Positions 8,672-47,131 of a DNA stretch of 64,000 bases are shown one piece after another (position 1 is the stretch's first letter; each line of letters starts with the position of its first letter). The notes under the pieces are model-generated. The model ran no database searches. It saw only the letters and a program-made list of their open reading frames with translations, and was not told where the DNA came from. Source of the DNA: Chthonomonadales bacterium. GTDB lineage: Bacteria; Armatimonadota; Chthonomonadetes; Chthonomonadales; CAJBBX01. The stretch is from positions 130,817-194,816 of the forward strand of contig DAIDHP010000005.1 in the NCBI GenBank assembly GCA_027459625.1, read 5' to 3'. The translations under genes and the position numbers were made by a program.

Positions 8672-8690
8672 GATATACCGTTCAGGCTCC

Positions 8691-12316: not shown

Positions 12317-12343
12317 TTAATTTGAATAACGGAACACCATATC

Positions 12344-12952: not shown

Positions 12953-13591
12953 ATGGATGGTAGCCCCTACTTGGTATTTGACGCCCAGGACACACTTATG
13001 GGAGTCAAAATGGGGTTCGCCGCATTAGGATACGCATTCTCCTTCACCTTGTGGAAGCCCGGTGAGGAGTACACGTCCGCTCCTGGATGGGACGCCAGCA
13101 AGTATTGCGCAGGGGTTGGTGCGGGAGCCACCTACGCGGCCGCAGCGCTGGCGGCGCCTGGAATTATTGCGAAGGCATCTCCGTATGTGACGAGATTTCT
13201 GAATCCCGTTACAGCCACCACTCTGTCCACTTTAGCCGCAAAAGATGCCGAGAATCCGGCGGCGGAAGAGGAGACGATTGAGCAGGATGGAACCAATTGC
13301 CTGAATGCGATCGAGGAGGAACTTCAAAATGCTGAAAAGAGAATCACAGTTTCGCGCTGGGGTAGACCGGGATTGCAACCGGGTGACTGGGTGATGAAGG
13401 GAAAGGCGAATTATTGGAATTATGTTAGAAGTGGCAAATGGGATCCCTTCAAATGGAATCAATTCGCTCCGTTTAGTAGTGGTCAAGAATATGAAGTGCC
13501 AGTATCTTCAATAAAATGGCCTACCGGATTGGGAATTGATGGATGGTGGAAAGGGCTTATTTATGGTCAAAGAATCTATAATCCTGATTAA
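12344..13591 (+). CDS. Orphan (5'-truncated) RHS core plus C-terminal toxin 1 of unknown family
   Basis: RHS homology starts at 12344 (GTGLGYDASGNL) and the first usable start is GTG 12434. YD repeats, then GRFVSRDPIG…NLYAYCYGDPINYIDPGG, then a unique extension. Confidence 0.85.
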   Translation, partial: GTGLGYDASGNLTSLNGETLSWVAWGELSGVTGTPSGNVSYAYDAFGRRMSKTVGSSTTYYLYDGDALIAEVDASTDQVTTAYTWGADGLVSDHAGTQSRFYLFDALGNARSLMDSNGNLLATAAYTAYGTPIGTPLPSTPFGWHGEAGCRTDSETGLVFMEARYYSPALGRFVSRDPIGFDGGINLYAYCYGDPINYIDPGGMDGSPYLVFDAQDTLMGVKMGFAALGYAFSFTLWKPGEEYTSAPGWDASKYCAGVGAGATYAAAALAAPGIIAKASPYVTRFLNPVTATTLSTLAAKDAENPAAEEETIEQDGTNCLNAIEEELQNAEKRITVSRWGRPGLQPGDWVMKGKANYWNYVRSGKWDPFKWNQFAPFSSGQEYEVPVSSIKWPTGLGIDGWWKGLIYGQRIYNPD

Positions 13592-13606
13592 ATTATAAGG
13601 TGAGCA

Positions 13607-13888
13607 ATGAAAATTATAGAATATGTTATAGAGATTATATTATTATTATTTTCCATTCATATAATTTCAATAAATCTGATTATATTAATAATATGGCTCA
13701 TACGTAAAAAACCTATATCATCCATGGCGCCTTTCTTTGGCGGAATACTTTGTAGTATAATAATATTAATTCAACCGATTCATATTGTAAAATTTTATTG
13801 GTGGATACCAATAATAATAGATCCATCAAATTATAGCATTGCATATTTTATTTTTTATAACTTATTTCATATGCGTTTATATAAGTAA
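13607..13888 (+). CDS. Putative immunity protein for RHS toxin 1 (small membrane protein)
   Basis: 93 aa, very AT-rich and hydrophobic, 15 nt after the toxin stop, with an AAGGTGAG SD-like motif upstream. Confidence 0.7.
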   Translation: MKIIEYVIEIILLLFSIHIISINLIILIIWLIRKKPISSMAPFFGGILCSIIILIQPIHIVKFYWWIPIIIDPSNYSIAYFIFYNLFHMRLYK

Positions 13889-14029
13889 TACTTTTATCTT
13901 GTATAATTTGACGTATATCGGTTCACAAAATCAAAGAATCTCATAATATTCAAGCGGCTGACGAGCGTCACCACCGTCATCGGCACCTACTCCTACACCG
14001 TTTCGTACACTTATTCCGGGGATGGTCAT

Positions 14030-27738: not shown

Positions 27739-30027
27739 ATGAAAAACTTGCGATTATGGATAGTCCTAGGCATAGTCGTTACATTCTCTTTTGCCGTGCT
27801 GGGGTATTTCGGAAGGGAGATATACGTTGAAGCCCCACCAATTCCGAACCGGGTTGTGACGCAGGATGGACAAACCCTCTTCACAGGCAAGGAGATAAGA
27901 AACGGACAAAATGCATGGGAGTCCATGGGTGGTCAGGAAGTAGGCACGGTATGGGGGCATGGCGCCTACGTCGCTCCGGACTGGTCCGCGGATTGGCTGC
28001 ATAGGGAAGCGATCTGGATACTTAATGACTGGGCTAAGGAGCAGGGTTTTCCAAGTTATCAATTTTTAACGGATGAGCAAAAAGCGGCATTGCGGGCTAG
28101 GCTGAGCGATGAATTACGTAAAAACACCTATGACTCCTTGACCGGTAATGTTGTTGTATCCCATACTATCGCGCAAGCGATTCAAGCGGTCTCGGCTCAT
28201 TATATCGCGTTGTTCGGTTCCGATCCATCGATGAATCAATTGAGAAAGGATTACGCGATTCCGGACAATCCGCTCCCAAGCCTGCAGAGAAGGAAGGAGT
28301 TATGTGGATTCTTCTTCTGGGTGGCTTGGGCGTGCATGACCAACCGTCCCGGGTCCAACATCACCTACACGAATAACTGGCCGCCTGAGCGTTTAATTGA
28401 CAACGCTCCCACTGGATCGCTTATCCTTTGGTCCATAATCAGCGTCGTTTTGTTAATCGCCGGCATAGGTGCCCTTTCCTGGTATTTTGCCGTTCGTCGA
28501 AAAGAGGAGCCCGATGAGAAAGTCATCATTCCGGAAAAGGATCCATTGCTCAATCTCAAGCCTACTCCATCCATGCTGGCGACTTTAAAGTATTTTTGGG
28601 TGGTATTGGCGATGTTGCTGGTTCAGATTGCGATGGGAATCATCACCGCTCATTATGGCGTGGAAGGCGAGGGTTTGTATGGCATTCCGCTTGCAAAATG
28701 GTTACCCTACGCAATCACGCGCACCTGGCACTTGCAACTCGGAATATTCTGGATTGCCACGGCATGGCTTGCGACGGGGCTTTTCGTGGCTCCTGCGGTA
28801 TCAGGATATGAACCGAAGTGGCAGAAAGCGGGTGTAAACTTCCTATTTGTCTGTCTGTTAATTATCGTATCAGGTTCGATGGTCGGTGAATGGCTTGGAG
28901 TTCAGCAGAAGCTAGGGTTGGATGTTAACTTCTGGTTTGGTCATCAGGGCTATGAATATCTGGATCTTGGAAGATTCTGGCAGATATTCCTATTCGTGGG
29001 ATTGCTTCTTTGGCTGGGGTTAATGACCGGAGCCCTTTGGCCTGCTCTTAGAAAAGCCGGGGAGAACAAACAACTCCTCAGTATTTTCATCATATCCGCC
29101 GCTGCGATCGCCCTTTTTTACGGCGCAGGGTTGATGTATGGACGCCAGACAAATCTGGCGATCGCGGAGTATTGGCGATGGTGGGTGGTGCACCTGTGGG
29201 TGGAGGGGTTTTTCGAGGTGTTTTCCACGGTCGTGATTGCATTCCTTTTCACCAGAATGGGTTTGTTGAAGAGCGCGACCGCAGCCAGCTCGATACTGTT
29301 CTCGTCGATCATATTCCTGGGGGGAGGAATCATCGGCACATTCCATCATCTCTACTTCACCGGCACACCAACCTCCATTCTCGCTCTTGGAGCCTCATTC
29401 AGTGCATTGGAGGTTGTGCCGCTCTCTCTCGTGGGATTCGAAGCGTATGGAAACTTGAAAATCAGCCATTCAAAGCCTTGGATCCAGGCGTATAAATGGC
29501 CGATATACTATTTCGTGGCAGTTGGCTTTTGGAATCTAGTGGGTGCGGGACTTTTCGGCTTTCTCATCAACCCGCCCATTAACCTTTATTACATGCAAGG
29601 GTTAAACACCACTCCCGTACACGCACACACCGCCTTGTTCGGGGTATATGGTATGCTTGGTTTGGGCTTGATGCTCTTCTGCCTAAAAGGAATGGACGCG
29701 CATAAGACTTGGAAGGACAAGCCGTTGGCGTTTGCATTCTGGGCGACCAACATTGGACTTGTTTTGATGGTGGCGCTGTCGCTTTTACCGGTGGGTCTAC
29801 TACAGGCATTCGCAAGCATGACGCATGGCATGTGGTATGCTAGGTCGGCCGGATTTCTTCAGAAACCGATCATGGTTCATTTGAGATGGATGAGAATATT
29901 CGGCGATACTCTCTTCGCATTAGGTATTTTCGCTTTTTGTTGGTTCGTGGCGGGGCTGAAAACTAGATGGTCCGTAGAGCAAGACACGGCTGACAAATCT
30001 TTGGATGACTTAATCAACGCCAAATAG
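27739..30027 (+). CDS. norB: Quinol-dependent nitric oxide reductase (qNor)
   Basis: 762 aa; GTVWGHGAYVAPDWSADWLH, RTWHLQ, GYEYLDLGR, VVHLWVEGFFE, GTFHHLYF and HAHTALFGVYG. Confidence 0.95.
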   Translation: MKNLRLWIVLGIVVTFSFAVLGYFGREIYVEAPPIPNRVVTQDGQTLFTGKEIRNGQNAWESMGGQEVGTVWGHGAYVAPDWSADWLHREAIWILNDWAKEQGFPSYQFLTDEQKAALRARLSDELRKNTYDSLTGNVVVSHTIAQAIQAVSAHYIALFGSDPSMNQLRKDYAIPDNPLPSLQRRKELCGFFFWVAWACMTNRPGSNITYTNNWPPERLIDNAPTGSLILWSIISVVLLIAGIGALSWYFAVRRKEEPDEKVIIPEKDPLLNLKPTPSMLATLKYFWVVLAMLLVQIAMGIITAHYGVEGEGLYGIPLAKWLPYAITRTWHLQLGIFWIATAWLATGLFVAPAVSGYEPKWQKAGVNFLFVCLLIIVSGSMVGEWLGVQQKLGLDVNFWFGHQGYEYLDLGRFWQIFLFVGLLLWLGLMTGALWPALRKAGENKQLLSIFIISAAAIALFYGAGLMYGRQTNLAIAEYWRWWVVHLWVEGFFEVFSTVVIAFLFTRMGLLKSATAASSILFSSIIFLGGGIIGTFHHLYFTGTPTSILALGASFSALEVVPLSLVGFEAYGNLKISHSKPWIQAYKWPIYYFVAVGFWNLVGAGLFGFLINPPINLYYMQGLNTTPVHAHTALFGVYGMLGLGLMLFCLKGMDAHKTWKDKPLAFAFWATNIGLVLMVALSLLPVGLLQAFASMTHGMWYARSAGFLQKPIMVHLRWMRIFGDTLFALGIFAFCWFVAGLKTRWSVEQDTADKSLDDLINAK

Positions 30028-30438: not shown

Positions 30439-31152
30439 ATGTTAAAAATATCACCGGAAACAACGGTTGCGGAGATTGTCTCCGCGAAGATTAGCAGATC
30501 AAAGGTTTTCGAAAACAACGGAATTGACTTTTGTTGCGGAGGGGATATCCCATTGTCGGATATCTGTCGAATGCAGGGATTGAAGGTGGAGAAGGTGCTT
30601 CAGGAGTTAGATGCCAACGACATAGAGCATCCTGAATCGGAAAGAGATTGGAATACGGCTCCCTTGCACGAGTTATGCGATGACATCGTGGCTGTGCATC
30701 ATGAAAATTTGCGCAGAGAGATGCCAAGGATCAAAAAAATGATCGAAAAACTCGCGGAAGTGCACAAAGTCAACCATCCAGAACTGCGAGACTTACTGGC
30801 TGTGTTCAGTTCGTTTGAGGAGGAGATAACATCGCATTTGATGAAGGAGGAGCATATTCTCTTCCCTATGATCAAACAATTGGAGACAGCGTCCGCATCG
30901 CCGGAATTTCACTGTTACACCGTCGCCAACCCAATTCATGTCATGATGAGCGAGCATGAGTCCGCAGGCGAGGCGTTGGACAAGATGCGAACAATCACCA
31001 AGGACTACATACCTCCGGAGGATGCATGCAACACCTATAAAGCGATGCTGGATGCTCTTCACGAATTGGAAAGCGACACCCATCGTCACATCCACCGAGA
31101 AAACCATATCCTCTTTCCGAGAGCGCAATCGCGGGAGAGTGAGTTAAAGTAA
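30439..31152 (+). CDS. ric: Iron-sulfur cluster repair di-iron protein (Ric/YtfE/ScdA)
   Basis: GIDFCCGG, HHENLR, HLMKEEHILFP, EHESAG and HIHRENHILFP hemerythrin motifs. Confidence 0.95.
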   Translation: MLKISPETTVAEIVSAKISRSKVFENNGIDFCCGGDIPLSDICRMQGLKVEKVLQELDANDIEHPESERDWNTAPLHELCDDIVAVHHENLRREMPRIKKMIEKLAEVHKVNHPELRDLLAVFSSFEEEITSHLMKEEHILFPMIKQLETASASPEFHCYTVANPIHVMMSEHESAGEALDKMRTITKDYIPPEDACNTYKAMLDALHELESDTHRHIHRENHILFPRAQSRESELK

Positions 31153-35768: not shown

Positions 35769-36440
35769 TTGCGAGCTCTGCAATTACCTGAAATCATTAA
35801 TCATCACCTCATACAGAGGATCAATTTCTTGAACAAGGGCTCTTTTCCTGGTGCGTTATCCTATCCATTCCCATCAAATATCGAACAGCATGAGAAACTT
35901 TCCAATGACCAACTGTTCGAATGGTTGATGGATATTCATTATAAAAGGATATACAACTATATTTACCGCATGATCCGGAACGAACAGGATGCCGCAGACA
36001 TTACCCAGGAAACCTTTGTGCGTATCTACAAGGCTCTCCCGCGTCTGCGCAATCGAGATTCCTTGCCATTCTGGATACGTCGAATCGCCACAAATTTATG
36101 CCTCGATCATCTTCACAAGCGGATGAATTCTCCAGAGATCATGGAACTTGACAAAGAAGGCGAGGATGGATCCCCATCGCCAATTCAATTTCTTCAAGCC
36201 GATCCCGCCCAGGAACCCATGAAGATACTTCACACTACGGAACGGGCGCAAGTGCTTCTGCAAGCAATAGACACTCTTCCGGACGAATACAGAACGGTTA
36301 TTCTTTTGCACCACATTGACGGGCAACCTTTGGATGAGATAGCGAGGATACTGCATGTGCCTGTGGGAACCGTCAAATCCAGACTGAGTCGAGCCAGATT
36401 CGAATTAAGGCGAAGGACCGCTTTCTACTTCGAACCTTAG
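35769..36440 (+). CDS. ECF (group 4) RNA polymerase sigma factor
   Basis: Region 2 IYNYIYRMI…DAADITQETF…WIRRIATNLCLD and region 4 LPDEYR…EIARIL.VPVGTVKSRLSRAR. Exact start uncertain. Confidence 0.92.
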   Translation: MRALQLPEIINHHLIQRINFLNKGSFPGALSYPFPSNIEQHEKLSNDQLFEWLMDIHYKRIYNYIYRMIRNEQDAADITQETFVRIYKALPRLRNRDSLPFWIRRIATNLCLDHLHKRMNSPEIMELDKEGEDGSPSPIQFLQADPAQEPMKILHTTERAQVLLQAIDTLPDEYRTVILLHHIDGQPLDEIARILHVPVGTVKSRLSRARFELRRRTAFYFEP

Positions 36441-36483: not shown

Positions 36484-37599
36484 TCACGCGATCTGTCGCT
36501 GAAGATACCCCCTTATCGGTTTTGCCGCATCCTCCGGATTGCACGGTATCGAGAAGAGGAATCCCTGCATCAGAGAGATGCCGGCGCGAAGAGCGACCCG
36601 CATCTGATCAATTGTTTCGATACCCTCCCCTATCAATGTGGCTCTAACACTTTGCGCTGACATGCAGATTCGATCCATTTCCAGCCGTGCATTTGCGTTA
36701 GTCACCGCTACGGCGATCAATGTTGCATCCATTTTGGCGTAATCCGGGTTCAATTTTTCAATCAATTCGACTGCAATGCGGCCTCTGCCAAGATTGTCCA
36801 ATGCGAACTTTGCCCCCATCGCGTGGATGTACCTTGCTATGTCACGCAGTATCTCCAAGCTCATGGCGCTCTCCGCTTCAACCGCTTCGAAAACCAATCT
36901 TTCTGGTTTCAATCCTATCTCTTTCGCATCCTCAAAAGTGCATTTCAGTGCGCTGTCAGGATCGCCAATGGCGTTTGGAAGAAAGTTGATGAATATCAGC
37001 GCATCGGACTGATCCACCTGAGCGGCCGAGCGAATGGCGCACTGACGCGCCATTCCATCCAACTGATCCATAAGGTTCAGCCTTCCGCAAGCGTGCAGGA
37101 GTTCGCCTGCGAATATCACTTCGCCTGTGAAGGGATGATGCGCCCGCACCAAAGCCTCGTACGCCACAACCCTCATCGTTCTGGCGTCCAAAATGGGATG
37201 AAACACGCTATACAAAGAGCCTATGTTAAGTATCCGCCTAGCCCATTCAACTTCAGTCTGTTCGAAAAAGACTGGGAGAGGTTCCGCCTGAAGGAAATCC
37301 CGATACGTGAATTGACGCCGATTAGCATCACTAATGAATATCCCTTTGATGCGAGAATGAAGCAAGGAAGGTATGCCGGTCCATAAGGCGGATTTCAATT
37401 CACTCATTCGTTGAAGCGGAAAATCCAGTAACACGGAGCAACCAAGCGATATGAAAGGGATTTTCGATTTCGCTATGGATCGCTTTAGTTCAGATTCCGA
37501 TATCCGATCCATGGGCGTCAGTAACACGTTGTATCTTGGATCTATCGCTTTCCAATTCAGGCAAGGACATTCGACGCACTTTCTATTGTCGCAATCCAT
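36484..37599 (-). CDS. EAL-domain protein (c-di-GMP phosphodiesterase-like)
   Basis: FHPI, YEALVR, INF, FEAVE, ALDNLG (canonical DDFG), YAKMD, EGIE and QG. ATG at 37599 has a GGAGG SD. Cys-rich N-terminus. Confidence 0.85.
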   Translation of the reverse strand: MDCDNRKCVECPCLNWKAIDPRYNVLLTPMDRISESELKRSIAKSKIPFISLGCSVLLDFPLQRMSELKSALWTGIPSLLHSRIKGIFISDANRRQFTYRDFLQAEPLPVFFEQTEVEWARRILNIGSLYSVFHPILDARTMRVVAYEALVRAHHPFTGEVIFAGELLHACGRLNLMDQLDGMARQCAIRSAAQVDQSDALIFINFLPNAIGDPDSALKCTFEDAKEIGLKPERLVFEAVEAESAMSLEILRDIARYIHAMGAKFALDNLGRGRIAVELIEKLNPDYAKMDATLIAVAVTNANARLEMDRICMSAQSVRATLIGEGIETIDQMRVALRAGISLMQGFLFSIPCNPEDAAKPIRGYLQRQIA

Positions 37600-37888
37600 C
37601 TCTTCGCCTCCCCCTTGAACTACCATCTCTAAATGGATTTTCGGCGTTTATGCGAAATATCTTCATTGAAGTGACGTCGATTTGGAAATAATAATAAAAG
37701 GAGGTTTTTTTCAAAAGGAGATATTGGAATATCTTTTGAGGTGATTGTAAATTCAAAATCTAACGCTATGATCGCTCATTTCACACTCCCCTAATCACAT
37801 GGAATGCGAATGTCGCCATTTTTGTGGTTTATATGGTTTTAAACGGGTTTGAAGTATGTTGTTGTCCATGCCTCTTGAAGAAAACCCT

Positions 37889-40800
37889 TTATGTCCGGGA
37901 GCAAATCAATCTAAACGCACATATGCGACACTCATAACCAGGATTGGTTGAGGAGCAGCCTTCCCCCAAGCTTTTTATGATGCCCCTATATTTTTCAATT
38001 CTCCGAAGTTCTCGGGGAGTGTCCATGTCCACTTTCATCGTTTCATTGTCGTACAGCGAATAGAGAGTGATTTCAAATTCAATTTCCGGTAGGGATTCCA
38101 TCACCGCCTTCCTTAGAAGCGCGATTTCCGGCAAGTTCTTATCCTCCCTCCTTATCGGATCCAACAAAAAAATGTATATAATCCAATGATTCCTCTCGCA
38201 TTCCGAAATGTAATCCGTGGGTATTCTGATGGTTCCGTAATCCAGCGAGAGGACGATATTAGTAGGGGGGATAGGTTTTTCGCGGAGGGTCAATTCCCTG
38301 TAGTTTTCCAACAACCTCCTCCCGTAATTCTTTAACCTAATCGAATACTGATTATCTGGCACACCCGGTGCATTCCACTCCTCTTCGTATTTGAAGATAT
38401 CCTCTTCACGAGATATCACCGCCCCGTTTATACTTCTATCCCGCATATCACGAATTCGCGACATGACAAGATGTTGAAACCAACCGTAATGCCTTCGATT
38501 GAAAATGGTCGGAAAGCCAAACTGTGTCAAATAATGATATCTTCTCGGACATTTTTCAAATTGCTGCAATCCCTGCCAAGTCACATCCGGTTTATGATCT
38601 TGCAAGGTTCCCGCTGAAATCAATGAATCCTTGTCGATTAGCGGGTTAACGTCCAAATTTGGTTCCTTATAATAAACGGAGGGGGGGATGACGTTGTTTA
38701 TGAGGTCAATAAAATCATTCGCGGATTTATTCAAGTCGGTATGCAATAAAGTAAGACGGTCCATGGCGCGGCTTACCCCGACGAAATATAACCGCATCTC
38801 CTCCTTATCTGAATCCGGATTATAAAATGGCAGCAACGATTGCAACGTCCCTCGTCTTCTGGTTTTCATCTCCTCCAAAAACGGAATGATAACGGAGGGG
38901 AATTCAAGGCCCTTTGACTTGTGAAGAGTCATCACACGCACGGCATTTACATAATCCATGTGCTCGGATGCGTTGATTTTCCCACCCATATCCAAGTTCT
39001 CCACCAATGCCACCCAATCTAGAAATTCACCGATTCCGGGGGAATCGCCGTCGATATGCCGATTGGCATGTGAATGCAAAAGAAAAAGAAACTGGTTGAG
39101 TACAATCCTCTCCTGCAACGCCTCAACGCTATTCTCCAGCAATAGACGACGAAGATAACCGGAAAGCGTGTAAAGATAGTGCGTGAGCAACTTGAAGGGA
39201 TTTTCGATCCGGCACAGTGTGTCCATGTGGCTTTCAAAAAGGCTCGTATCTGTTTCGTCGTTCGAACTCTCTGATTGCCCCCCTTTCCCTCGATACTCCG
39301 CAAATTGCAGGATGCGATCCTTTGAGACCGCATCGCCATTCCTGCAATAGCTTAAAATAGCGAGCATATCCTTTACACTGTTCCGATCCGTTAAACTTCC
39401 AAGAAACAACGTCGGAACTCGATTGGATTCCATGTATCCCGACACAGTTTCCGCTTGGTCATATGTCCTGCATAAAATAACCTGAGAGGAATAAGGAACC
39501 CCTTGGCTCTTGTCCTCGTTTATTATTTGAACCATTGCGGATAGTTGATCATTCTTATCATTCGCAGCGATATTACGGATTGTCGCCTGTTCGTTTTTTC
39601 GATGAGGAAGCCACCTTTCCCGTTTCACCCCGTTATTCTCATGGGTTGCAATTTGATTGAGCATATCTACGATAACAGGCTGTGAGCGATAATTTCTCCG
39701 TAGATTCATCACTTTGGCGTCGTGATAACGATTGGAAAACTCACGAAAATTCTCCCCATACGCCCCCCTGAAACCATAAATAGCCTGTCGGTTATCCCCG
39801 ACCGCCCATAGACCCCTGCCATCTCCGGAAAGCAATTCAATCAACACCGTTGTCGCTCGATTGATATCCTGATATTCATCCACGAGAATGTGAGGAAATT
39901 CTGTTCGGATTTGCAAAAGCGCCTCGGGGAAGGATTGAAGGATTCTCACCGGTTGCGCGATCAAATCGCCGAAATCCATCCGCCCCTCCTCTCGAAGGAT
40001 CCGATCCCACTCCTCGTAGACCTGCGAGAATTTGAGAACACGATCTCTCTTCTCCGATTCATTGATCTCCCCCTTGATTTCGGAGGAATAATCAGGAAGG
40101 TTGTCCGGATATAACAGTTCGTCCTTGCATCTGGAAATGGTGTAATAGATGTTTCTAAAATACCTTATGGGATCTTTCAAACTGCAAGCGACATAAGGGG
40201 ATAGGTCCAACCTTTCGAGATATCGCTCCATGAGGGGTATGGCGTCCACTTCATCAATCAGCGTCGCGTTTTGAGAGAAATTGATAAGGTTTCCGAATCG
40301 TCTAATGAGTTCGAGACCAAAGGAGTGAAACGTCCCAATCCATATCCGCTCCGCCGCATCGGGGTAGGACTCCTCCACGCGATGATACAGTTCCTCCGTT
40401 GCGTTATTGCTGAAAGTCAGGATAAGTATGTTTTCCGGATGCACCCCATTGCTCAACAGGTATTCCGCATGAGAGATCAACGAGGTCGTTTTACCGGTGC
40501 CGGGTCCTGCCAACACCAATGTCGCGCCATCCTCGCATGCAATCGCTCGCCTCTGTGAAATGTCCGCTTGTCCTTTGCGCTTCAGCACAGGCGTTTCCAT
40601 GGGGATGTCCGGCAGCAAAGCCTCTATCAACTGAGTGTGAATCAACTCAGGAGCGATTCCAACATGTTCACTAATCTCCTTGGCGTCCATACCATTCATG
40701 AATAAATCGCGCGCAACGGGTATCGGCAGAAGGAACTCGACGGCGAAAACACTCGCCTCCATCTCCCGTCTCTCTTTGAGGGAGTATCCAAGCCTCTCGC

Positions 40801-41161
40801 TCCATACGGACGATGCAGCTTTTGGATGAGGCAGGGATGGCATGAATTCGGGCAAGCACACGGTGATGTGTCTTCGAAGATGAAGATGCGCCAATTCATG
40901 GGCGAGATAAAACGGAAGCATCGAGGGATTTGCATCTTTGGAGTACCAGATGGATTGCGCCCCCCTGTCAAGAACGGAAATGGCGCCGTATAAGAGGGGA
41001 TCATTCGGGGGAAGAGCGTATTTGGAGTAATCTTCCAGTTCCAGCGCGACACTCAGAAGATCATCCGAGAAAGGAAGAGATGACGATAGTCCCGATTTGG
41101 AGGATAGAACCGTTTCCCTATACTCGCGTGCACGCTGGCGAATGAGACGCCATCTATTCAT
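37889..41161 (-). CDS. IrrE/ImmA (DUF955) metalloprotease - UvrD/PcrA SF1A helicase - Fe-S PD-(D/E)XK-like fusion protein
   Basis: HELAH (aa 88-92, nt 40886-40900) and EMEASVFAVEFLLP. Helicase motifs GPGTGKT, LTFSN, GTFHSF, VDEYQD, VGDNRQAIYGFRGA, NYRS, TLHKSKGLEF, EEMRLYFVGVSRA. C-terminal CPRRY plus CRICAFRLIC. Confidence 0.88.
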   Translation of the reverse strand: MNRWRLIRQRAREYRETVLSSKSGLSSSLPFSDDLLSVALELEDYSKYALPPNDPLLYGAISVLDRGAQSIWYSKDANPSMLPFYLAHELAHLHLRRHITVCLPEFMPSLPHPKAASSVWSERLGYSLKERREMEASVFAVEFLLPIPVARDLFMNGMDAKEISEHVGIAPELIHTQLIEALLPDIPMETPVLKRKGQADISQRRAIACEDGATLVLAGPGTGKTTSLISHAEYLLSNGVHPENILILTFSNNATEELYHRVEESYPDAAERIWIGTFHSFGLELIRRFGNLINFSQNATLIDEVDAIPLMERYLERLDLSPYVACSLKDPIRYFRNIYYTISRCKDELLYPDNLPDYSSEIKGEINESEKRDRVLKFSQVYEEWDRILREEGRMDFGDLIAQPVRILQSFPEALLQIRTEFPHILVDEYQDINRATTVLIELLSGDGRGLWAVGDNRQAIYGFRGAYGENFREFSNRYHDAKVMNLRRNYRSQPVIVDMLNQIATHENNGVKRERWLPHRKNEQATIRNIAANDKNDQLSAMVQIINEDKSQGVPYSSQVILCRTYDQAETVSGYMESNRVPTLFLGSLTDRNSVKDMLAILSYCRNGDAVSKDRILQFAEYRGKGGQSESSNDETDTSLFESHMDTLCRIENPFKLLTHYLYTLSGYLRRLLLENSVEALQERIVLNQFLFLLHSHANRHIDGDSPGIGEFLDWVALVENLDMGGKINASEHMDYVNAVRVMTLHKSKGLEFPSVIIPFLEEMKTRRRGTLQSLLPFYNPDSDKEEMRLYFVGVSRAMDRLTLLHTDLNKSANDFIDLINNVIPPSVYYKEPNLDVNPLIDKDSLISAGTLQDHKPDVTWQGLQQFEKCPRRYHYLTQFGFPTIFNRRHYGWFQHLVMSRIRDMRDRSINGAVISREEDIFKYEEEWNAPGVPDNQYSIRLKNYGRRLLENYRELTLREKPIPPTNIVLSLDYGTIRIPTDYISECERNHWIIYIFLLDPIRREDKNLPEIALLRKAVMESLPEIEFEITLYSLYDNETMKVDMDTPRELRRIEKYRGIIKSLGEGCSSTNPGYECRICAFRLICSRT

Positions 41162-41843
41162 GATCTTTAATCGAGGTATCCTCGGATAATATTTTCAGCC
41201 AATTCGACTTCTCTTCATCAGACATATCCTCGCACTCCTTAATCGCCGACGAGAATGAAACGAGGGATTTTGAATGCGGTTTTGACTGCGAGTAAAACTC
41301 GATTGAATATTTTCTCGGGGGCTCGAATAACTCATCAAAAACTGACTTTGGCTCATTACCTAATCTTGGAGGAGCATAGCAGACAATTCCCATAAAGCCT
41401 AATTTAAACATACCTTCCGGTATATTAATCTCTCTATAGAGCATTCTCCAAAAACGACGCGGGATGCTGGACGCTTCCAACAAACCGTGATCCAGCTTCG
41501 CAAGGACGGAGAACCCAACCTTCAAGGATCTCGCAACATCCTCCGGGCGCTTGTTTTTCCTACGAATCAATGAGAATAGCGAAGCGTCGTTAACCGAACC
41601 TTGCTCCTCCCTGTTTCCAAGAGCATTTTGCAAAATTTGGTTTGCTCGCACGGAATAAAAGTCGTATTGAGGATCGCCTGCAGGTTCCGTTTCCAAGAAG
41701 AGTTCATTATGCTTAAGTATGGCGTACTCTATTATCTCCTCGCGGTACGAGGGATACTTATCGATCCATCGTAGCAGATCAATACTTCCGCCTGGCTTCG
41801 AATAGCTCTCTATCTCCGCTATGATATCCGTTATGTCCGTCAT
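41154..41843 (-). CDS. Hypothetical protein with central XRE-like HTH; candidate repressor/anti-sigma
   Basis: 229 aa. Segment PEDVARSLKVGFSVLAKLDHG…IPRRF resembles an XRE HTH. Stop overlaps the helicase start by 8 nt. Confidence 0.6.
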   Translation of the reverse strand: MTDITDIIAEIESYSKPGGSIDLLRWIDKYPSYREEIIEYAILKHNELFLETEPAGDPQYDFYSVRANQILQNALGNREEQGSVNDASLFSLIRRKNKRPEDVARSLKVGFSVLAKLDHGLLEASSIPRRFWRMLYREINIPEGMFKLGFMGIVCYAPPRLGNEPKSVFDELFEPPRKYSIEFYSQSKPHSKSLVSFSSAIKECEDMSDEEKSNWLKILSEDTSIKDHE

Positions 41844-41999
41844 TATATTTCCATCCTACCGGGTGTTTGCAAAATCATTCAACAGGCACTCCCCAGCCAT
41901 CGCATGATGTTCCGAATAAAAGTTGAATGAGGCAATTGACGGCTATTAAAAAAGGTTTGATGAAACAACCGGTTTTCTCCTATTTCGAGTATATCACAC

Positions 42000-42713
42000 T
42001 TATTTTTGCATCAATGTCCGAATTGATTTAATATAATTCCTGACTGTCCTGGAGGAACATCCAATTATTGTCGCGATCTCCTCCTGAGTATAACCCTCTT
42101 CAAGCAAAAAGACTATTAAGGAATGAGGAAATGTGAGCTTATCGTATTGAATTTTCGTTAACACTATATCCTCGGGATTCCTATCATCCCGCAACCCATC
42201 CTCCAAACTCCCATTTCCTTCATCGTCATCATACTGATTCGGATGAGTCTCCATTTTCCACCTTTTAACGCTTGACCCGATTTTGGTTGATATCAGCTTG
42301 TGAACGCAGGATATGAAATTGACCTCCCAAAACTCATGCTTCTCCGTCAAATCCATCACATTTACAATCAAATCGTGGAGGACATCATACGCGACATCCT
42401 CAATGTGACTATGATTCAAGGTGCAGTGATGTTTGAGAGTGTTCCAAACAATGATCTTTCCTCGATTAAACACCTCCGTCAGCAGTATGTCCTTGGCGGC
42501 ATTGTCCTCGTATTTTATGGCGCGTCGCGTGAAGTGTATGAGAGTCTCCATGCGAGGATAATTGCAATTATCCCTATCCTTAATCGTGGCGTAATAGAGC
42601 AACTCCTTTTTGGAGAGCTTGATCCATGAGCAAATCTGTTCCTCAACGAGCGGATCACGCTTATAACCTCTGGATAATACACACGGCTCGGATTGATGCC
42701 ACTCATAACCCAT
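42000..42713 (-). CDS. Divergent sigma-70-like factor
   Basis: Region 4 HTH EGYTQEEIATIIGCSSRTVRNYI, a region 2-like segment IEDVAYDVLHDL…FWEVNF, and an N-terminal extension. ATG at 42713 preferred to the ORF-track start at 42767. Confidence 0.65.
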   Translation of the reverse strand: MGYEWHQSEPCVLSRGYKRDPLVEEQICSWIKLSKKELLYYATIKDRDNCNYPRMETLIHFTRRAIKYEDNAAKDILLTEVFNRGKIIVWNTLKHHCTLNHSHIEDVAYDVLHDLIVNVMDLTEKHEFWEVNFISCVHKLISTKIGSSVKRWKMETHPNQYDDDEGNGSLEDGLRDDRNPEDIVLTKIQYDKLTFPHSLIVFLLEEGYTQEEIATIIGCSSRTVRNYIKSIRTLMQK

Positions 42714-43003
42714 TGTGAATATCTCTCTATAAGATATATCTGTTAAGATAAGGAAATGCGGAAACACGATTTAACACAGATATTTTAACGCAAAAAAAAT
42801 TCATAGTCAATCATTTTGAATAAACCCATCCGTCTCGGATGGACAAATGAATGAACGGACTTGGTTTTTCGGAGGCAGGAAAACTTTTCCCTGCCATCCA
42901 TATTATCACACAGCACTCATTGCCCGATCGTTTAAATATCGTGGAAGCGACATAATTGTCCTCGCATGACCTTTGCCGCGAACCACACCATTCATCCATC
43001 CAT

Positions 43004-46000
43004 TTATTCCGCATTTGATCGCTTAATTATCGTCTCAACGGAAGGCTTGGACAAACGAATCTCCGGCTCTCCCCAAGACCCCCAGTCGGCGGTGGAGTTA
43101 TTATTTGGACCCACGTCGCCTTTCAGCATGATACGCATAGTTTTCCCTTCGAAAGGGCTTAGGTCGGCTTGAAAATCCTTCCATTCATGCTGCACTGCGG
43201 TGATCTCCCCAATTTTCACCCTTTGATCCTTGTTGGTAATCACGTATACGGTGAACCATACCCCGTCACTAGGATCTCCTCCATCCTTAATTCCTGCGTA
43301 ACAGTGAAACTCGCAAGGATCCGGGGGAAGCTGAATGGGATCGGAGATTGCCCATGTATAACCAACCCCCTCAGAGTATGGTGGATGCATGAAAATACCT
43401 CGTTTGACCAGGCCACCAACCGATAAATCCTCGCCGGGATCGAATATCGCCCCTGTATTCCCCTCGTTTGGCACCTCCTGACCTCCCCTGAGACAGATTC
43501 CCCATGAATAAGGGATATTGGAAAGGTTTCGGATCTCCGTTTTTTGATATTCCCGAACCAGTTGAAAGTCCTCCTGCACTGTTTGCGGCAACCCTACCAA
43601 ACGTACGGTAAGGCGTCCCGTCTCTCCCGCCGCCAATGAGGAATAGACCCTGAATTGCAATTTACGAGGCGGATTCGACGATGAGAAGGAGTAGGATGCG
43701 GGGGAAACACGCCACCCCCTGGAGGTTGTGAGAGCCACCCTCATCTTCACCTTGGTCACACCCGCCAGTCTCCATTTTGGAGTGAGCGTCAGCACTGTTT
43801 CCTCGGTTTTGGCTTTGAAACTCCAATCCCATCGTACCGGGGGACAAATGAATAGGCGCGTCGTTCGTATATCTACGCCCGATTTTGCCTGAATATCAAT
43901 CCAGTCTCCGATTTTCGCGTTAGACGGTATAACAAGCTCTCCGTTATCAATTGTCCCCTCGCTGCTATGCCATTGGTACGTTTTTCCGTTGGTCGTCACC
44001 AAGCGAACCTTGCCTCCCGGAACGGTTTCGGCATGCTCGGGGTGGATGCTCCAAGCAACCTTTCCGGAAAACCGCAGGACATATTTCAGTGCGTTTTGCA
44101 CGGGTGTGATCCACGTCTGATCGCCGCTATCCTTGAATTTGGCGTCTTGCAAGCGTTGTCCATTCACGTCATACGTCTTGCATTCCAATGCAGCACCCTT
44201 CATACCGTAGGGTCGGGCGATCATAAAATCGCCGGTTCCTGTTATATGGGTGATTCCGAGTATGTTTCGGGATTTTTTCTCAATCGCCAACGCTCCATTC
44301 GACCCCGCATCGAAAGTCATATACCAATGACCCCTTCCATCCTGGTAGATGTACGCGTTGGAATGCAGATAGTCCACCTTGGATCCATCATGAAGCTCTG
44401 AAAAGCTGAGAAGGGGCCCCCTATCGCTATTTGGCTGAAACACCGCCCATCCGGCTGGCGGAAGGATGTGGATATTCTTGCCGATTCGCACTTTCCAATG
44501 ATCGTGGGGACTGTCGTTCAGCCAGAGCCGAAGCCCTCCCGGATATTCGACATAGAGTTGCCGCCGACTGCCGGGCAATCCCTCCTCCACCGACTTCGAC
44601 ACCCCGACCAACTTGGAGCCATCCCAATAAGCGATCCGGAGCGGTTTCTTTAATCCGTAACGAGCCTGAACCTGTTGCAGCATGTAGTAAGACCTGCAAG
44701 TTCGCTCGATGCCGTATTGCTCCTCCACCAACCATCCGATATGCCCATACGCCATGGTTGTCAGGATGAAGCGATCTATCGCATTGTCTATATTTTGAGG
44801 GTCTTGCCAATTCGGTATCGCGTCGCAATAGGAGGTGGTCCAACTGACACCGATATCGCACTCCTTGGTGTGGATCTGATTAAGGTCAAACACGGGCAAT
44901 AAAGGCTCGGTAGCAAGCGGCCGATTATTATATGTGTGACCATAATTTCCATCCGGTAAACCTGCGTAGAAACACTGATAGGTGCCTTCTGAAAAGATCG
45001 GACCGTGATACACCCGAGAGTCGTTTCGAAGGAGTTGGCCGTATGCGTAAAAAGTCTGAGCGAAAGTGCCGGCGCCTGGAACGCGAGAATCGTAATCGGT
45101 GCGCCCCCATGGGGGAACCGCAGTCATAACATCGGTATACGCCGAGTCGGATCGGTATCTTTCCTCAATTCGAGGTGCGATCTCCGCATCAAACTGAACC
45201 GCTGCCAATGGTTTCAACGCCCAACAACGGTACCATGCCCCTCCCCATGTTCCGTCAGGATTTAGTATCACCTTGTCTTGCGTCCAGTGTCGATTGATGG
45301 GGGCGTAATCACTATAGTTGGAGTACAGACCGCTAAGCCATCCAAGCGATTCTTGGTGTGCGACGTATTTCTCCAACGCCTTATCGCCTCCACCCACCAC
45401 CGGTTCTCCGTCCACAATTTGGGAACCTCCTCGTATCGGGGCTGCGTGGGTTCTCAAGGTGAAACTCTCCCCATGGTCTCGCCATGATATCTCATGATTG
45501 CATTGAATCAGCCGTTTGATCCCATATGCGCGTAACATCGCACTGCGTTTCTCCTCCGTAGCATAGTTATCAGGGCCCCAGGATTCCTGCCATAAGCGAT
45601 TTACCGCCAGTTTCGCATGCAAACCAACCGGATTGGCGATTGTGGGCAACGTTTCCTCCAAGGAAGGCGAAACCGTGATGAACAACCTTTCATACATGGG
45701 GTTCAGTACGCCATTCGTCAGTGGGGTGTATGTCACCGCGCCATTGATACGCGCGATTTTTCCGTTCGCATAATTAGCGGCGGAAAGTTGACTGCCGTTG
45801 GAACGATACCAATCCGGCCAGATGGAGGTGTACACCCATTTGGCGCCGGCCTTGCTGAGCAACACCCCGGGATCGTTTCCTCCTCCGTATGTCAAAAAGG
45901 GTATATATAATACACGAGGATCCGTTAATCCCGATAACTCTCCGTATTCAAGAGCCGTGGCGCGTCGAGTTGTATTCCTCACATCCAGCACGAGGGATTT

Positions 46001-47131
46001 TTGCCATATGCGAAGGGTTAGGACTGTGTCGTCCGTATATTTCGCAGTCACAATCCCATCCTTTACATGTGAGGATTTTAACTGAGTGGTCTGATTGTCA
46101 TTTCCTTGAAGTCGAACGGTACCCCCATCCATCAAACGTCCAAGATATTTCCCGTCCACCTTGGCGTCAAGTCCGGACAAATATTTATTCGCGTCAAATT
46201 CGTAGGATACCGTGCAATCCTTTCCCTTATAATCGAAAACGTATCGATTGGCGGAGATTCTTTTCACATCGTCATGATATTTTTTCGTCAAATTGACGGG
46301 TAGTATTGTCTGTTCGCGCGTTGGAAATGACAGTTTGCCTTTCCCTGTGTTGGCTCCAGGGGATTGGCCAGGGAAAAGAGTCAGATTGCGTTTCGGCAGG
46401 GGAGGAAAATGCAGCGGCGAAAATTGCTGATGGTAGAATTTGATAGATTCGAAATAGATATCCCGCCACCCGGATTGCCATCCGCCATTGATCTCCATCC
46501 CCGTCAATTGCAGGGGTCTTTTCAGCGCTTTCGGCGCCAATGCGTGCAGAAGAAACCATTGCGGCCAGTCTATATGAGCGATTGCTATGGAGGAGGATTG
46601 GCCATTGGCATCGCGTATCAGCAGTGTTACGGATACGGACGGAGTGGATTCAATCGAAGGGGAATCGGGGAACGCAGATCCGAATGTCCATCGATTCCCG
46701 TAAATCCACATATTCACCGCGTCCGCATCATCGGGTATGGTTATCGGTTGAGGAGGTGTTAGGAGGATTTGGGCATTCGAGCCGTTTTTACCGTCACCAT
46801 GGTAGCGCAACTCTCCCACCGGACGCCCATATAGGGTCTGCGCCAAACTCGGTTCGAAAGTCGCCTCCGCACCTCCGTAAACTTGCATTGTCCATCCGTC
46901 CAAGTTCTCGAATGTGACAGTGGGAGGCAATGTCTCCTTGCGGTGAGCCCACACCATCTCATATGGGCGCACTCCAACCTTTTGGTTGGGGTCAACCGTC
47001 GGTATCACTGTTTGCGCCATGGCGACTCCGCTCCATAATATTTGAGTCAAACCCAATAGGATAACTCCGGTTTTCATTCTTGCGAACATATCGCCGCCCC
47101 CTTGTAAGGACTTCAGGTCGGTATTTAACAC
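43004..47131 (-). CDS. Large secreted multidomain putative glycoside hydrolase (GH-D-like barrel, C-terminal NPCBM-like module)
   Basis: 1375 aa with signal peptide (…GVAMA-QT). Central GLYSNYSD…AYTDV…IFSEG and C-terminal IFMHPPY…GIKDG…SDGV.F…D…WGEP. Confidence 0.55.
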   Translation of the reverse strand: MLNTDLKSLQGGGDMFARMKTGVILLGLTQILWSGVAMAQTVIPTVDPNQKVGVRPYEMVWAHRKETLPPTVTFENLDGWTMQVYGGAEATFEPSLAQTLYGRPVGELRYHGDGKNGSNAQILLTPPQPITIPDDADAVNMWIYGNRWTFGSAFPDSPSIESTPSVSVTLLIRDANGQSSSIAIAHIDWPQWFLLHALAPKALKRPLQLTGMEINGGWQSGWRDIYFESIKFYHQQFSPLHFPPLPKRNLTLFPGQSPGANTGKGKLSFPTREQTILPVNLTKKYHDDVKRISANRYVFDYKGKDCTVSYEFDANKYLSGLDAKVDGKYLGRLMDGGTVRLQGNDNQTTQLKSSHVKDGIVTAKYTDDTVLTLRIWQKSLVLDVRNTTRRATALEYGELSGLTDPRVLYIPFLTYGGGNDPGVLLSKAGAKWVYTSIWPDWYRSNGSQLSAANYANGKIARINGAVTYTPLTNGVLNPMYERLFITVSPSLEETLPTIANPVGLHAKLAVNRLWQESWGPDNYATEEKRSAMLRAYGIKRLIQCNHEISWRDHGESFTLRTHAAPIRGGSQIVDGEPVVGGGDKALEKYVAHQESLGWLSGLYSNYSDYAPINRHWTQDKVILNPDGTWGGAWYRCWALKPLAAVQFDAEIAPRIEERYRSDSAYTDVMTAVPPWGRTDYDSRVPGAGTFAQTFYAYGQLLRNDSRVYHGPIFSEGTYQCFYAGLPDGNYGHTYNNRPLATEPLLPVFDLNQIHTKECDIGVSWTTSYCDAIPNWQDPQNIDNAIDRFILTTMAYGHIGWLVEEQYGIERTCRSYYMLQQVQARYGLKKPLRIAYWDGSKLVGVSKSVEEGLPGSRRQLYVEYPGGLRLWLNDSPHDHWKVRIGKNIHILPPAGWAVFQPNSDRGPLLSFSELHDGSKVDYLHSNAYIYQDGRGHWYMTFDAGSNGALAIEKKSRNILGITHITGTGDFMIARPYGMKGAALECKTYDVNGQRLQDAKFKDSGDQTWITPVQNALKYVLRFSGKVAWSIHPEHAETVPGGKVRLVTTNGKTYQWHSSEGTIDNGELVIPSNAKIGDWIDIQAKSGVDIRTTRLFICPPVRWDWSFKAKTEETVLTLTPKWRLAGVTKVKMRVALTTSRGWRVSPASYSFSSSNPPRKLQFRVYSSLAAGETGRLTVRLVGLPQTVQEDFQLVREYQKTEIRNLSNIPYSWGICLRGGQEVPNEGNTGAIFDPGEDLSVGGLVKRGIFMHPPYSEGVGYTWAISDPIQLPPDPCEFHCYAGIKDGGDPSDGVWFTVYVITNKDQRVKIGEITAVQHEWKDFQADLSPFEGKTMRIMLKGDVGPNNNSTADWGSWGEPEIRLSKPSVETIIKRSNAE

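Follow-up and report, generated by a model that had tools for sequence, protein, structure and literature searches.

Three adjacent genes in a 64,000-nucleotide (nt) stretch of the genome of a Chthonomonadales bacterium (GCA_027459625.1; contig DAIDHP010000005.1, positions 130,817 to 194,816, forward strand; here called the window) belong to a cassette that is conserved across bacteria and that, in most loci, is joined to operons for ubiquitin-like (Ubl) conjugation. In order of transcription, the genes encode a sigma-like protein, a 229-amino-acid (aa) protein here called the middle protein, and a 1,090-aa fusion of an M78-type metallopeptidase to a UvrD-like helicase. A preliminary description of the window, made from its letters alone, had singled out this trio as a possible DNA-sensing proteolytic switch. 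It is very probable, on the comparisons presented here, that the three genes form a conserved regulatory unit that has its own sigma factor and promoter and is linked to the Bil and Bub operons. We favor the fuller reading, to which we assign a probability of roughly 0.55, that the trio is a self-contained transcription switch that works by proteolytic release of its sigma factor. In such a switch, the first gene would supply a private sigma factor resembling those of the extracytoplasmic function (ECF) class, and the second would supply a protein that keeps the sigma and/or its promoters inactive. The third gene product would be both sensor and actuator: DNA ends or single-stranded DNA (ssDNA) arising from damage or phage replication would engage its motor and its iron-sulfur (Fe-S) domain, DNA engagement would switch on the fused M78 protease, and the protease would cut the middle protein within a disordered linker. 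The freed sigma would then lead RNA polymerase to a cassette-specific promoter, one copy of which, before the cassette genes, would provide feedback and another copy of which, after the helicase gene, would drive BilABCD or Bub.

Conservation of the cassette, its promoter motif, and the linked operons

A genome scan that took one genome per species returned 22 full-length helicase loci from the Acidobacteriota, Chloroflexota, Armatimonadota, Verrucomicrobiota, and the Alpha-, Beta-, and Gammaproteobacteria (loci are designated here by L numbers). The proteobacterial hosts were Nitrosomonas, Methylococcaceae, Sphingomonas, Caulobacter, Mesorhizobium, Collimonas, Pseudomonas, Aeromonas sobria, and Kluyvera georgiana. 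The preliminary description had treated the three genes as one module, and 21 of the 22 loci, spanning five or more phyla, carried this trio with its order unchanged: open reading frames (ORFs) of approximately 260 to 285 aa and then approximately 185 to 235 aa lay directly upstream of the helicase gene on the same strand, and their products were collinear, distant (about 20% identity) homologues of the sigma-like and middle proteins of the window. The exception was L007, whose helicase, at 36% identity, was the closest to that of the window among named genomes; variant proteins were encoded in both of its upstream positions. An outward search from the middle protein found the same gene order in L087, in L088, and on an Acinetobacter baumannii plasmid, as well as a degraded copy in L089. 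On the plasmid, the Prokaryotic Genome Annotation Pipeline (PGAP) names the three products "sigma-70 family RNA polymerase sigma factor," "hypothetical protein," and "UvrD-helicase domain-containing protein." The genes of the cassette abut or overlap, with overlaps of 4 nt or 8 nt, and 4-nt overlaps also occurred between the sigma and middle genes. The middle-protein family comprised 1,217 clusters at 50% identity (E ≤ 1e-10) among 1.84 billion representatives, and homologues were present on 72 plasmids, most of which were mobilizable or conjugative; a megablast search with the Kluyvera cassette gave no match in Escherichia coli genomes. Moreover, the pairwise-identity matrices of the three proteins were correlated with one another (r = 0.90 to 0.91; Mantel P ≤ 5e-4), which indicates that the three genes move and evolve together.

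Genes for Ubl conjugation lay directly downstream of the helicase gene, on the same strand, in 15 of the 22 loci and in five further loci that were fetched later. Three kinds of operon were represented: Bub type I (a multiubiquitin-E2 fusion, a JAB-E1 fusion, and DUF6527/BubE), Bub type II (multiubiquitin, DUF6791-ThiF, and BubE), and BilA-BilB-BilC-BilD (PADLOC E-values of 1e-52 to 1e-171). Bil is an experimentally shown anti-phage system and Bub is a putative one, and the known regulators of Bub are CapW, CapH with CapP, and CapK with CapS. The preliminary description had foreseen a defense context; the junction with Bil or Bub operons held in most loci, but the window copy itself was located in a syntenic core region and not in a defense island.

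A bipartite element, CTTTCCGGTT-N16/17-CGATTA, was common to 13 of the spacers that separate the helicase gene from the Ubl genes. The consensus reads CTT(T/A)CCGGTT, 16 to 17 nt, CGATT(A/G); the spacers were 39 to 135 nt long, and the element ended 6 to 86 nt before the start codon. When a weight matrix derived from 9 of the 13 sites was applied, a second copy of the motif was found in most of the Ubl-linked loci scanned. The second copy was located either 40 to 67 nt upstream of the sigma-like gene (L006, L009, and L014) or within the 3′ part of that gene (L008, L010, L011, L016, L017, L019, L021, L022, and L072), the embedded copies being mostly about 185 nt upstream of the middle gene (104 to 188 nt as the ORFs were called). 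Three loci outside the training set each contained two matches, at the expected positions and with scores of 19.7 to 22.9; as background, 1.56 Mb of unrelated loci contained one match scoring at least 20 and four scoring at least 18. Stand-alone loci (L001, L004, L005, L018, and L082) gave no match to the matrix above the shuffled or real background. In the Acinetobacter plasmid and in Kluyvera, a variant −35 box, TTACCGACG, was found at both sites of the same locus, which indicates that the two sites vary together with their sigma. Moreover, the embedded motif overlaps codons for (F/Y)R...AID, and CGG, GCG, and ATT were the codons used in all nine embedded copies listed, a uniformity that indicates selection at the level of the DNA. 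An ECF-type sigma regulon would be expected to show just such a geometry, a −10 box that contains CG, and a copy for autoregulation. We conclude that the paired motif, a feature of the DNA sequence, is the strongest evidence that the first gene would encode a working dedicated sigma and that the Ubl operon would be its output.

The position of the helicase gene next to Bil or Bub, on the same strand, could also mean that the fusion protein works within Ubl defense, whether by acting on phage DNA, by serving as a conjugation target, or through an M78 domain that processes Ubl or removes conjugates, with the two small proteins as local regulators. Such a role would fit the lack of a JAB peptidase in type II Bub operons, and UvrD-like helicases are parts of defense systems, one of which is Gabija, whose GajB gave PADLOC matches here. 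The cassette is nevertheless intact, with HExxH under selection, where no Ubl genes are nearby (the window clade, L004, L005, L018, and L082), and it serves three types of Ubl operon, with or without JAB, as CapH/CapP, CapW, and CapK/CapS likewise do. A degenerate nuclease motif III in the fusion and a separate promoter between the helicase and the Ubl genes also argue against an effector or partner, which we consider distinctly unlikely.

Three of the loci reached from the middle protein had surroundings of their own. The low-coverage contig L089 (1 to 8335) encodes a helicase of 831 aa without an M78 domain, with small ORFs between the middle gene and the helicase gene; it still has both copies of the promoter motif and a type II Bub operon, and a PemK/MazE toxin-antitoxin pair adjoins. 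L087 (1 to 14582) carries the cassette and a type II Bub operon in an apparently mobile setting, with a serine recombinase gene and two ParB/RepB genes upstream and a LexA gene near, followed by DUF2188 and DUF3375 genes, both of which belong to families linked to defense neighborhoods. Just upstream of the cassette on the A. baumannii plasmid pAb-C102_1 (L090; NZ_CP051863.1, cassette locus at 7105 to 14313), a second, divergent gene for a "UvrD-helicase domain-containing protein" (3935 to 6673) adjoins an IS5 transposase gene and a DUF3800 gene.

Predicted functions of the three proteins

The preliminary description had called the product of the first gene a divergent sigma-70-like protein, and that call holds. 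The Pfam model Sigma70_r4_2 matched the window protein at 27.8 bits (cutoff, 25.7), and a profile of the family aligned with SigL, an ECF sigma factor of Mycobacterium tuberculosis (6dv9_F), at an E-value of 7.5e-7 over SigL residues 3 to 172, which include both sigma2 and sigma4. The family profile also matched AlgU (residues 31 to 187), SigE, and RpoE, and the E-values of matches that covered sigma2 ranged from 7.5e-7 to 2e-4. Within Pfam, only sigma region 4 and related helix-turn-helix (HTH) models matched the window protein, the C terminus of which also matched LuxR/GerE HTH domains; across the family, Sigma70_r4_2 was matched in 16 of 22 members. We conclude that the first gene probably encodes a divergent ECF-type member of the sigma-70 family with an N-terminal extension of about 60 aa.

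The 1,090-aa protein had been described as an intact HExxH...E zincin fused to an intact UvrD motor, and both parts were borne out by Pfam and by invariant residues. Peptidase_M78 (PF06114) matched residues 66 to 174, weakly but above the cutoff, at 24.6 bits (cutoff, 22) and is annotated for most members of the family. The zincin residues H88, E89, H92, and E133 were invariant in a family alignment of 30 sequences at about 30% identity, and the zinc motif, HExxH plus the downstream Glu ligand, sits in an E..A..FA..LL.P context. When a profile of the M78 domain was compared with solved structures, the best matches were CapP (7t5t; E = 5.3e-6), the alignment of which spans both motifs, and IrrE (3dte; E = 2.4e-4). 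For the motor, PF00580 matched at an E-value of 5e-62 over profile positions 4 to 270 of 271, PF13361 was matched as well, and the helicase motifs, including Q203, Walker A GPGTGKT (K224), DEYQD at 428 to 432, and R465, were invariant in the same alignment. A homology search returned thousands of helicase matches, and among the best 120, which came from Chloroflexota, Chthonomonadales, and many metagenomes, nearly all were about 1,130 aa long with the same M78, UvrD, and PD-(D/E)XK architecture.

Pfam also found a C-terminal Cas4/AddB-like Fe-S domain that the preliminary description had overlooked. Residues C871, C1078, C1081, and C1087 were invariant, in a C...CxxCx5C pattern as in the Fe-S domains of AddB and Cas4. 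D983 was nearly invariant, but nuclease motif III was not conserved: in place of the expected (D/E)xK, the family has V[ERQGIM]RxRTG and the window protein reads IIYIFLLDP. With the Fe-S cysteines kept and motif III unconserved, the nuclease site looks dead and the domain looks like a DNA-binding module and not an active nuclease. The same combination of invariant cysteines and unconserved motif III argues that the fusion is a sensor, not an effector.

Strong Pfam and NCBIfam similarity to UvrD/PcrA, together with a core-genome neighborhood, would also be seen if the 1,090-aa protein were an ordinary repair helicase, that is, a housekeeping paralogue of the UvrD/PcrA/AddA type with unrelated upstream neighbors. 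Every NCBIfam equivalog cutoff was missed by far, however (PcrA, 280 versus 911; Rep, 236 versus 951; UvrD, 210 versus 1144), and the AddA and RecB scores were also well under cutoff; the protein is not a housekeeping orthologue. Moreover, the M78 fusion was invariant, and unrelated neighbors are at odds with the conserved trio, its coevolution, and its common promoter motif. A repair helicase of this kind is already contradicted by gene order, and we regard it as hardly conceivable.

No model in Pfam, NCBIfam, or PADLOC matched the 229-aa protein of the window. An AlphaFold2 (AF2) model of the protein, with a predicted local distance difference test score (pLDDT) of 74.6, contained an N-terminal helical domain, a very confident center, a linker, and confident C-terminal helices. 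Foldseek searches with the central domain returned mostly HTH domains of the XRE/Cro type (434 repressor, ClgR, the N-terminal domain of DdrO, C.BclI, and HipB), at template modeling scores, normalized to the target, of 0.6 to 0.69 but at E-values of 0.3 to 5. A profile of the family matched ClgR at an E-value of 0.0037, and HTH_31/HTH_26 was matched in 4 of the 22 relatives, with a best HTH_31 E-value of 8e-8 in one of them. The XRE-like assignment of the preliminary description is thus supported at the level of family and fold and not by a domain match on the window protein. Within the linker, residues 159 to 184 had pLDDT values below 50, and the motif (F/Y)-x-x-x-x-K-P, which is FYSQSKP in the window, was conserved in the family, with P189 nearly invariant.

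The variant protein in the middle position of L007 bears on the function of the family. It is 385 aa long and begins with a zf-HC2 domain, the zinc-binding anti-sigma (ZAS) type, that reads HLERCTRC and matched Pfam at 23.1 bits (cutoff, 22.2), and its residues 268 to 374 matched positions 100 to 205 of the middle-protein profile, that is, the HTH and the C-terminal part (hhalign probability, 97.9%; E = 3.7e-13). By a Rosetta-stone argument, this fusion suggests that proteins in the middle position control a sigma. It suggests, from domain arrangement, that the HTH and C-terminal part form a module that interacts with the helicase-protease, and it may leave room for DNA binding by the HTH as well. 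The ZAS motif HxxxCxxC is absent from the 229-aa sequence of the window, and zf-HC2 was seen in the L007 variant only. From the precedents of CapP/CapH, IrrE/DdrO, and ImmA/ImmR, we infer that the middle protein binds the sigma, that it is cleaved, and that DNA activates the switch; the direction of regulation is a proposal as well.

The remainder of the L007 cassette (5696 to 8004) was also variant. Its sigma-like protein is 357 aa long and matched the family in region 4 only (hhalign probability, 67%), and a DNA methylase-like ORF lies downstream of its helicase gene.

One way in which the middle protein could act without binding a sigma is as a DNA-binding repressor like CapH, DdrO, or ImmR, seated on operators in the promoters of both the cassette and the output operon and removed by the M78 protease; the sigma-like protein would then merely read the promoters or would be a LuxR-like activator. 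An XRE-type HTH was picked up by three methods, the LuxR/GerE matches of the sigma-like C terminus fit an activator, and, in the window clade, the stretch from the promoter to the ATG of the sigma-like gene contains perfectly conserved palindromes. In addition, 24 cyclic-oligonucleotide-based antiphage signaling systems (CBASS) pair capH/capP with a sigma-70-family gene (Lau et al. 2022). Conversely, the fusion to an anti-sigma domain in L007 points to control of a sigma, 4-nt overlaps of the sigma and middle genes are typical of stoichiometric pairs, the family profile aligns to ECF sigma factors over sigma2 and sigma4, and no common palindrome was seen by inspection around the motif in Ubl-linked loci. 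We judge such a repressor unlikely and retain sigma release as the preferred reading.

The window copy and its surroundings

ORF analysis bore out the three co-oriented minus-strand genes of the preliminary description, with an 8-nt overlap of the middle and fusion genes at 41154 to 41161 (Table 1). An alternative, longer ORF for the sigma-like protein begins at a GTG and runs to 42767. We place the start at the ATG at 42713, as orthologues are also 237 aa long and conservation of the 5′ untranslated region (5′ UTR) reaches exactly to that ATG.

Table 1. Positions of the cassette genes, encoded domains, and candidate regulatory elements within the window
Feature	Positions	Strand	Basis
Fusion protein gene, 1,090 aa	37889-41161	-	ORF and Pfam
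PD-(D/E)XK/Cas4-like domain, residues ~860-1090	37892-38584	-	PF12705, 23.5 bits; four invariant Cys
UvrD/PcrA-like superfamily 1 (SF1) motor, residues ~200-812	38726-40564	-	PF00580, PF13361; Walker A at 40487-40507
M78/IrrE-type metallopeptidase domain, residues 1-190	40592-41161	-	PF06114; HELAH codons at 40886-40900
Middle gene, 229 aa	41154-41843	-	ORF, AF2 model, family profile
Low-confidence linker with FYSQSKP, candidate cleavage region	41274-41369	-	AF2, alignment
XRE-like HTH domain, residues ~88-155	41379-41582	-	pLDDT 91-96, Foldseek, profile
Inverted repeat in sigma/middle spacer, arms TTGC-C-TCATTCAAC / GTTGAATGA-TTT-TGCAA, variable loop	41867-41935	-	Predicted 9+4-bp stem
Sigma-like gene, 237 aa from ATG	42000-42713	-	ORF, Pfam Sigma70_r4_2, family profile
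Sigma region 4 HTH, residues ~200-237	42003-42116	-	Pfam, family profile
Palindromic 5′ UTR element AGATATATCT; ATATCT-N7-AGATAT, candidate operator	42719-42741	-	100% identical in three genomes
Housekeeping-type promoter TTGACT-17-TAAAAT	42782-42810	-	Best consensus match in region, 10/12

Comparison of the window with L001 and L085 indicated purifying selection on all three genes. The ratio of nonsynonymous to synonymous substitution rates (dN/dS) was 0.17 to 0.21 for the helicase, 0.26 to 0.28 for the middle gene, and 0.26 to 0.35 for the sigma gene; as comparison genes, SdhB gave 0.03 and Sua5 gave 0.13 to 0.19. Across the same three genomes, the roughly 150 nt that precede the sigma gene and the 156-nt spacer between the sigma and middle genes were 86 to 91% identical while the synonymous rate (dS) was 0.26 to 0.8, and the spacer itself was 88 to 91% identical. 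The TTGACT and TAAAAT hexamers of the candidate promoter were identical in the three genomes, and the sequence between them was mostly conserved. The inverted repeat in the sigma/middle spacer could be an RNA hairpin, an attenuator, or a split operator; its arms were invariant, and no covariation was found in the three sequences.

The trio had been described as visibly AT-richer than its flanks and as being without housekeeping neighbors. The first statement was right in direction, but the difference was modest, with a GC content of 0.461 against a window mean of 0.492 and a rank of 14th lowest among 237 equal-sized windows. The second was wrong: the trio is flanked by genes for Sua5/TsaC, succinate dehydrogenase, a 2-oxoacid dehydrogenase E2, and an ECF sigma. 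The cassette adjoins Sua5, a GFO/IDH oxidoreductase, and the 2-oxoacid dehydrogenase in L001 to L003 (helicase 80% identical), in L085 and L086, and in L004. L004 keeps this synteny with a helicase merely 35% identical to the window protein, and it retains the trio with the 8-nt overlap. Because the chromosomal place is the same in all of these loci, the cassette is vertically inherited in the window lineage and is not an island. Scans of the window with Rfam and for tRNAs gave no match and hence no RNA-gene or integration-site clue, and no integrase, tRNA, or repeat boundary was found near the cassette.

These neighborhoods also bear on whether the cassette is an immunity module of mobile elements, used by a plasmid or integrative element as an induction switch in the manner of ImmR/ImmA, in which case the window copy would be a remnant. 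The occurrence of middle-protein homologues on 72 mostly mobilizable or conjugative plasmids, the resolvase and ParB genes next to the cassette in L087, and the modest AT-richness of the trio could be explained in this way. The missing boundary in the window, the identical synteny with relatives at 80% and 35% helicase identity, and the purifying selection on all three genes weigh against it, and we consider a mobile-element module very unlikely. We conclude that the window cassette, being intact, selected, and vertically inherited, is probably functional.

Several results, in the window and elsewhere, weigh against the sigma-release switch. Sigma70_r2 of Pfam was matched in none of the 22 members of the sigma-like family, and the AF2 model of the window protein was weak (pLDDT, 63); its top Foldseek matches, which were ECF sigma/anti-sigma complexes, were nonsignificant (E of about 0.2). 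A recognizable anti-sigma domain was present in the L007 variant only, and the HTH of the middle protein suggests DNA binding instead of, or besides, sigma binding. The helicase, for its part, could just as well take part in the Ubl pathway as a functional component. The canonical motif was absent from the Bil-linked subgroup of L012, L013, and L020. It was also absent from the window, where the best motif score, 17.7, was inside the shuffled range, and a de novo search of three cassette spacers (pre-sigma, pre-middle, and post-helicase) from the window, L001, L085, and L004 found no consistent bipartite element. What appears to be an ordinary sigma-70-type promoter precedes the sigma-like gene in the window clade. 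Finally, tblastn searches of the 64-kb window with Ubl, E1, JAB, and BubE proteins from related loci found none of them (best E-value, 0.13). With neither a Ubl operon nor the motif, the window cassette is an intact orphan copy.

The gene downstream of the window helicase encodes an EAL-domain protein (cyclic di-GMP phosphodiesterase; 36484 to 37626, minus strand). It lies directly 3′ of the helicase gene in all three window-clade genomes, where other lineages have the Ubl operon, and a canonical ECF sigma gene (35769 to 36440, plus strand) converges on it. The spacer between the helicase and EAL genes (37627 to 37888, minus strand) contains a conserved block, GAAATGAGCGATCATAG, that is duplicated in L085 (13779 to 14162) inside an extra insert of about 100 nt. 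The block includes CGATCA, which resembles the −10 box of the cassette promoter elsewhere; a matching −35 box is absent.

Directly upstream of the trio, an ORF of 1,375 aa (43004 to 47131, minus strand) begins with a clear signal peptide and contains no domain known to Pfam, NCBIfam, or PADLOC, and it was 86 to 90% identical, with dN/dS of about 0.11 to 0.14, in L001 and L085. It was considered as a fourth member of the cassette and rejected on account of its signal peptide, its lack of a Pfam domain, and its absence from L004, which bears the trio. The ORF encodes a large secreted protein that is probably unrelated to the cassette. Farther away, a gene for a NorB/COX1-type oxidase with a cytochrome c-like domain (27739 to 30027, plus strand) and a ScdA/hemerythrin gene (30439 to 31152, plus strand) have conserved synteny in relatives, which suggests a nitric-oxide stress cluster a few kilobases from the cassette. 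Elsewhere in the window, where the mean is 0.49, GC content swings to 0.41 at 10 to 11 kb and at 13 to 14 kb, to 0.635 at 14 to 15 kb, and to 0.39 at 61 to 62 kb.

Implications and relation to known systems

The cassette bears on how bacteria time the activation of immune pathways that are costly or self-harming. Of the catalogued Bub operons, about half have a regulator of one of three classes: CapW/BrxR, CapH with CapP, or CapK with CapS. If the sigma-release switch is real, the cassette would be a fourth class of Bub/Bil regulator, one that releases a sigma instead of removing a repressor; its sensor would be an ATP-driven helicase and not a passive ssDNA-binding protease, and its promoter motif is concrete and testable. 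A more specific proposal, which we hold tentatively and at odds somewhat below even, is that the cassette is a bacterial signal transducer of a kind not described before, a protease gated by a motor: an SF1 helicase engaged on DNA, with an Fe-S domain that binds DNA ends, would license M78 to destroy an HTH anti-sigma and so free a private sigma. On that proposal, the cassette would be the missing regulator of some Bil and Bub operons, on chromosomes and on Acinetobacter and rhizobial plasmids, and in the uncultured lineage of the window it would have become a domesticated, stand-alone, LexA-independent DNA-stress regulon. The orphan, vertically inherited copy in the window suggests that the switch serves purposes beyond Ubl-based defense, and it bears on how the DNA-damage response is wired in lineages outside the LexA paradigm. 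Cultured hosts include Acinetobacter strains carrying the plasmids, Kluyvera georgiana ATCC 51603, Aeromonas sobria CECT 4245, and strains of Pseudomonas, Collimonas, and Sphingomonas, so the model is directly testable.

The preliminary description knew of no account of the three-part arrangement, and the trio was not found as a named system in PADLOC, NCBIfam, or the accessible Bil, Bub, and CapH/CapP literature. Of the conditions that the preliminary description gave for its own refutation, those open to sequence analysis, a lack of co-occurrence elsewhere and a match to a named system, thus both turned out in its favor. Assignment to a named defense system was rejected, as PADLOC gave generic GajB/UvrD matches only and NCBIfam gave no equivalog; neither PADLOC v2 nor NCBIfam had a model for the two small proteins of the cassette. 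Gabija in particular, to which the GajB matches reflect a generic UvrD-family similarity, was rejected because there is no GajA/OLD-type partner and because the fusion and the neighbors differ; the neighbors gave no other PADLOC match of note. The trio was not described in the literature on Bil, Bub, CapH/CapP, and CapK/CapS or in Iyer 2006, coverage of which is incomplete, such that this is absence of evidence only. Papers on Bil, Bub, and Cap regulators mention neither a helicase nor this sigma, and Dataset EV1 of the CapK/CapS paper, which catalogs the regulators of 544 Bub operons, has columns for CapW, CapH with CapP, and CapK with CapS only and does not list the cassette.

Among systems with related parts, CapH/CapP is close in several respects. 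CapP is the best solved-structure match of the cassette M78 domain, the cassette partner, like CapH, probably has an XRE-type HTH, and the CapH/CapP module is also placed before Bil and Bub operons. CapP is activated by ssDNA and DNA damage (Lau et al. 2022). In the CapH/CapP layout, a stand-alone peptidase and a small HTH repressor are encoded divergently from the operon that they regulate, with a common promoter region. In contrast, the cassette protease belongs to a polypeptide that also contains a complete SF1 helicase and an Fe-S domain, some 900 further residues, and the HTH is central in a larger protein without a Pfam match. Moreover, a sigma is the obligate third member of the cassette, which is co-directional with its output operon and not divergent from it, and the output promoters have a sigma-type bipartite motif.

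The IrrE(PprI)/DdrO pair and the ImmA/ImmR pair of ICEBs1 and phages combine an M78 zincin with an XRE HTH partner, as the cassette probably does, and their logic is that of RecA/LexA-independent derepression by cleavage. IrrE was, with CapP, among the best solved-structure matches of the M78 profile, and the N-terminal domain of DdrO was among the Foldseek matches of the middle protein. A helicase, an Fe-S domain, and a sigma are all missing from those systems, and the architecture of the substrate differs; we do not claim membership of the cassette proteins in the same orthologous groups. CapK/CapS and CapW/BrxR occupy the same niche upstream of Bub and Bil and are presumed to respond to the same signal, DNA damage or ssDNA, but their chemistry is unrelated (kinase/STAS and WYL, respectively).

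The helicase-nucleases AddAB, AdnAB, and those of the Cas4 type, which have an Fe-S "staple," resemble the fusion, with a UvrD-like motor followed by a PD-(D/E)XK fold and a C...CxxCx5C pattern. The Fe-S domain of AddB is needed for binding DNA ends. The cassette protein differs in that it is a single polypeptide with an N-terminal protease, motif III is unconserved, and AddA/RecB scores are far below cutoff.

Pairs of ECF sigma and anti-sigma factors controlled by regulated proteolysis, such as sigmaE-RseA and the ZAS-type RsrA and RslA, resemble the cassette in having an ECF-like sigma, which in the cassette is probably also of two domains, and a partner gene transcribed with it. In the wider cassette family, though not in the window clade, the bipartite promoter with CG in its −10 element and the copy suited to autoregulation are further likenesses, as is the zf-HC2 variant of the partner in L007. 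Unlike in those pairs, the partner in the cassette is cytoplasmic and has a predicted HTH, and region 2 of the sigma is too divergent for Pfam. The protease, moreover, is a DNA-helicase fusion encoded in the same operon and not a membrane site-1 or site-2 protease or ClpXP. We conclude, by analogy, that the cassette would work like the proteolytic switches of CapH/CapP and of ECF sigma/anti-sigma pairs and yet be a member of neither group, because its protease is fused to a helicase, it is co-directional with its output, its sigma is obligatory, and its partner mostly has no canonical anti-sigma domain.

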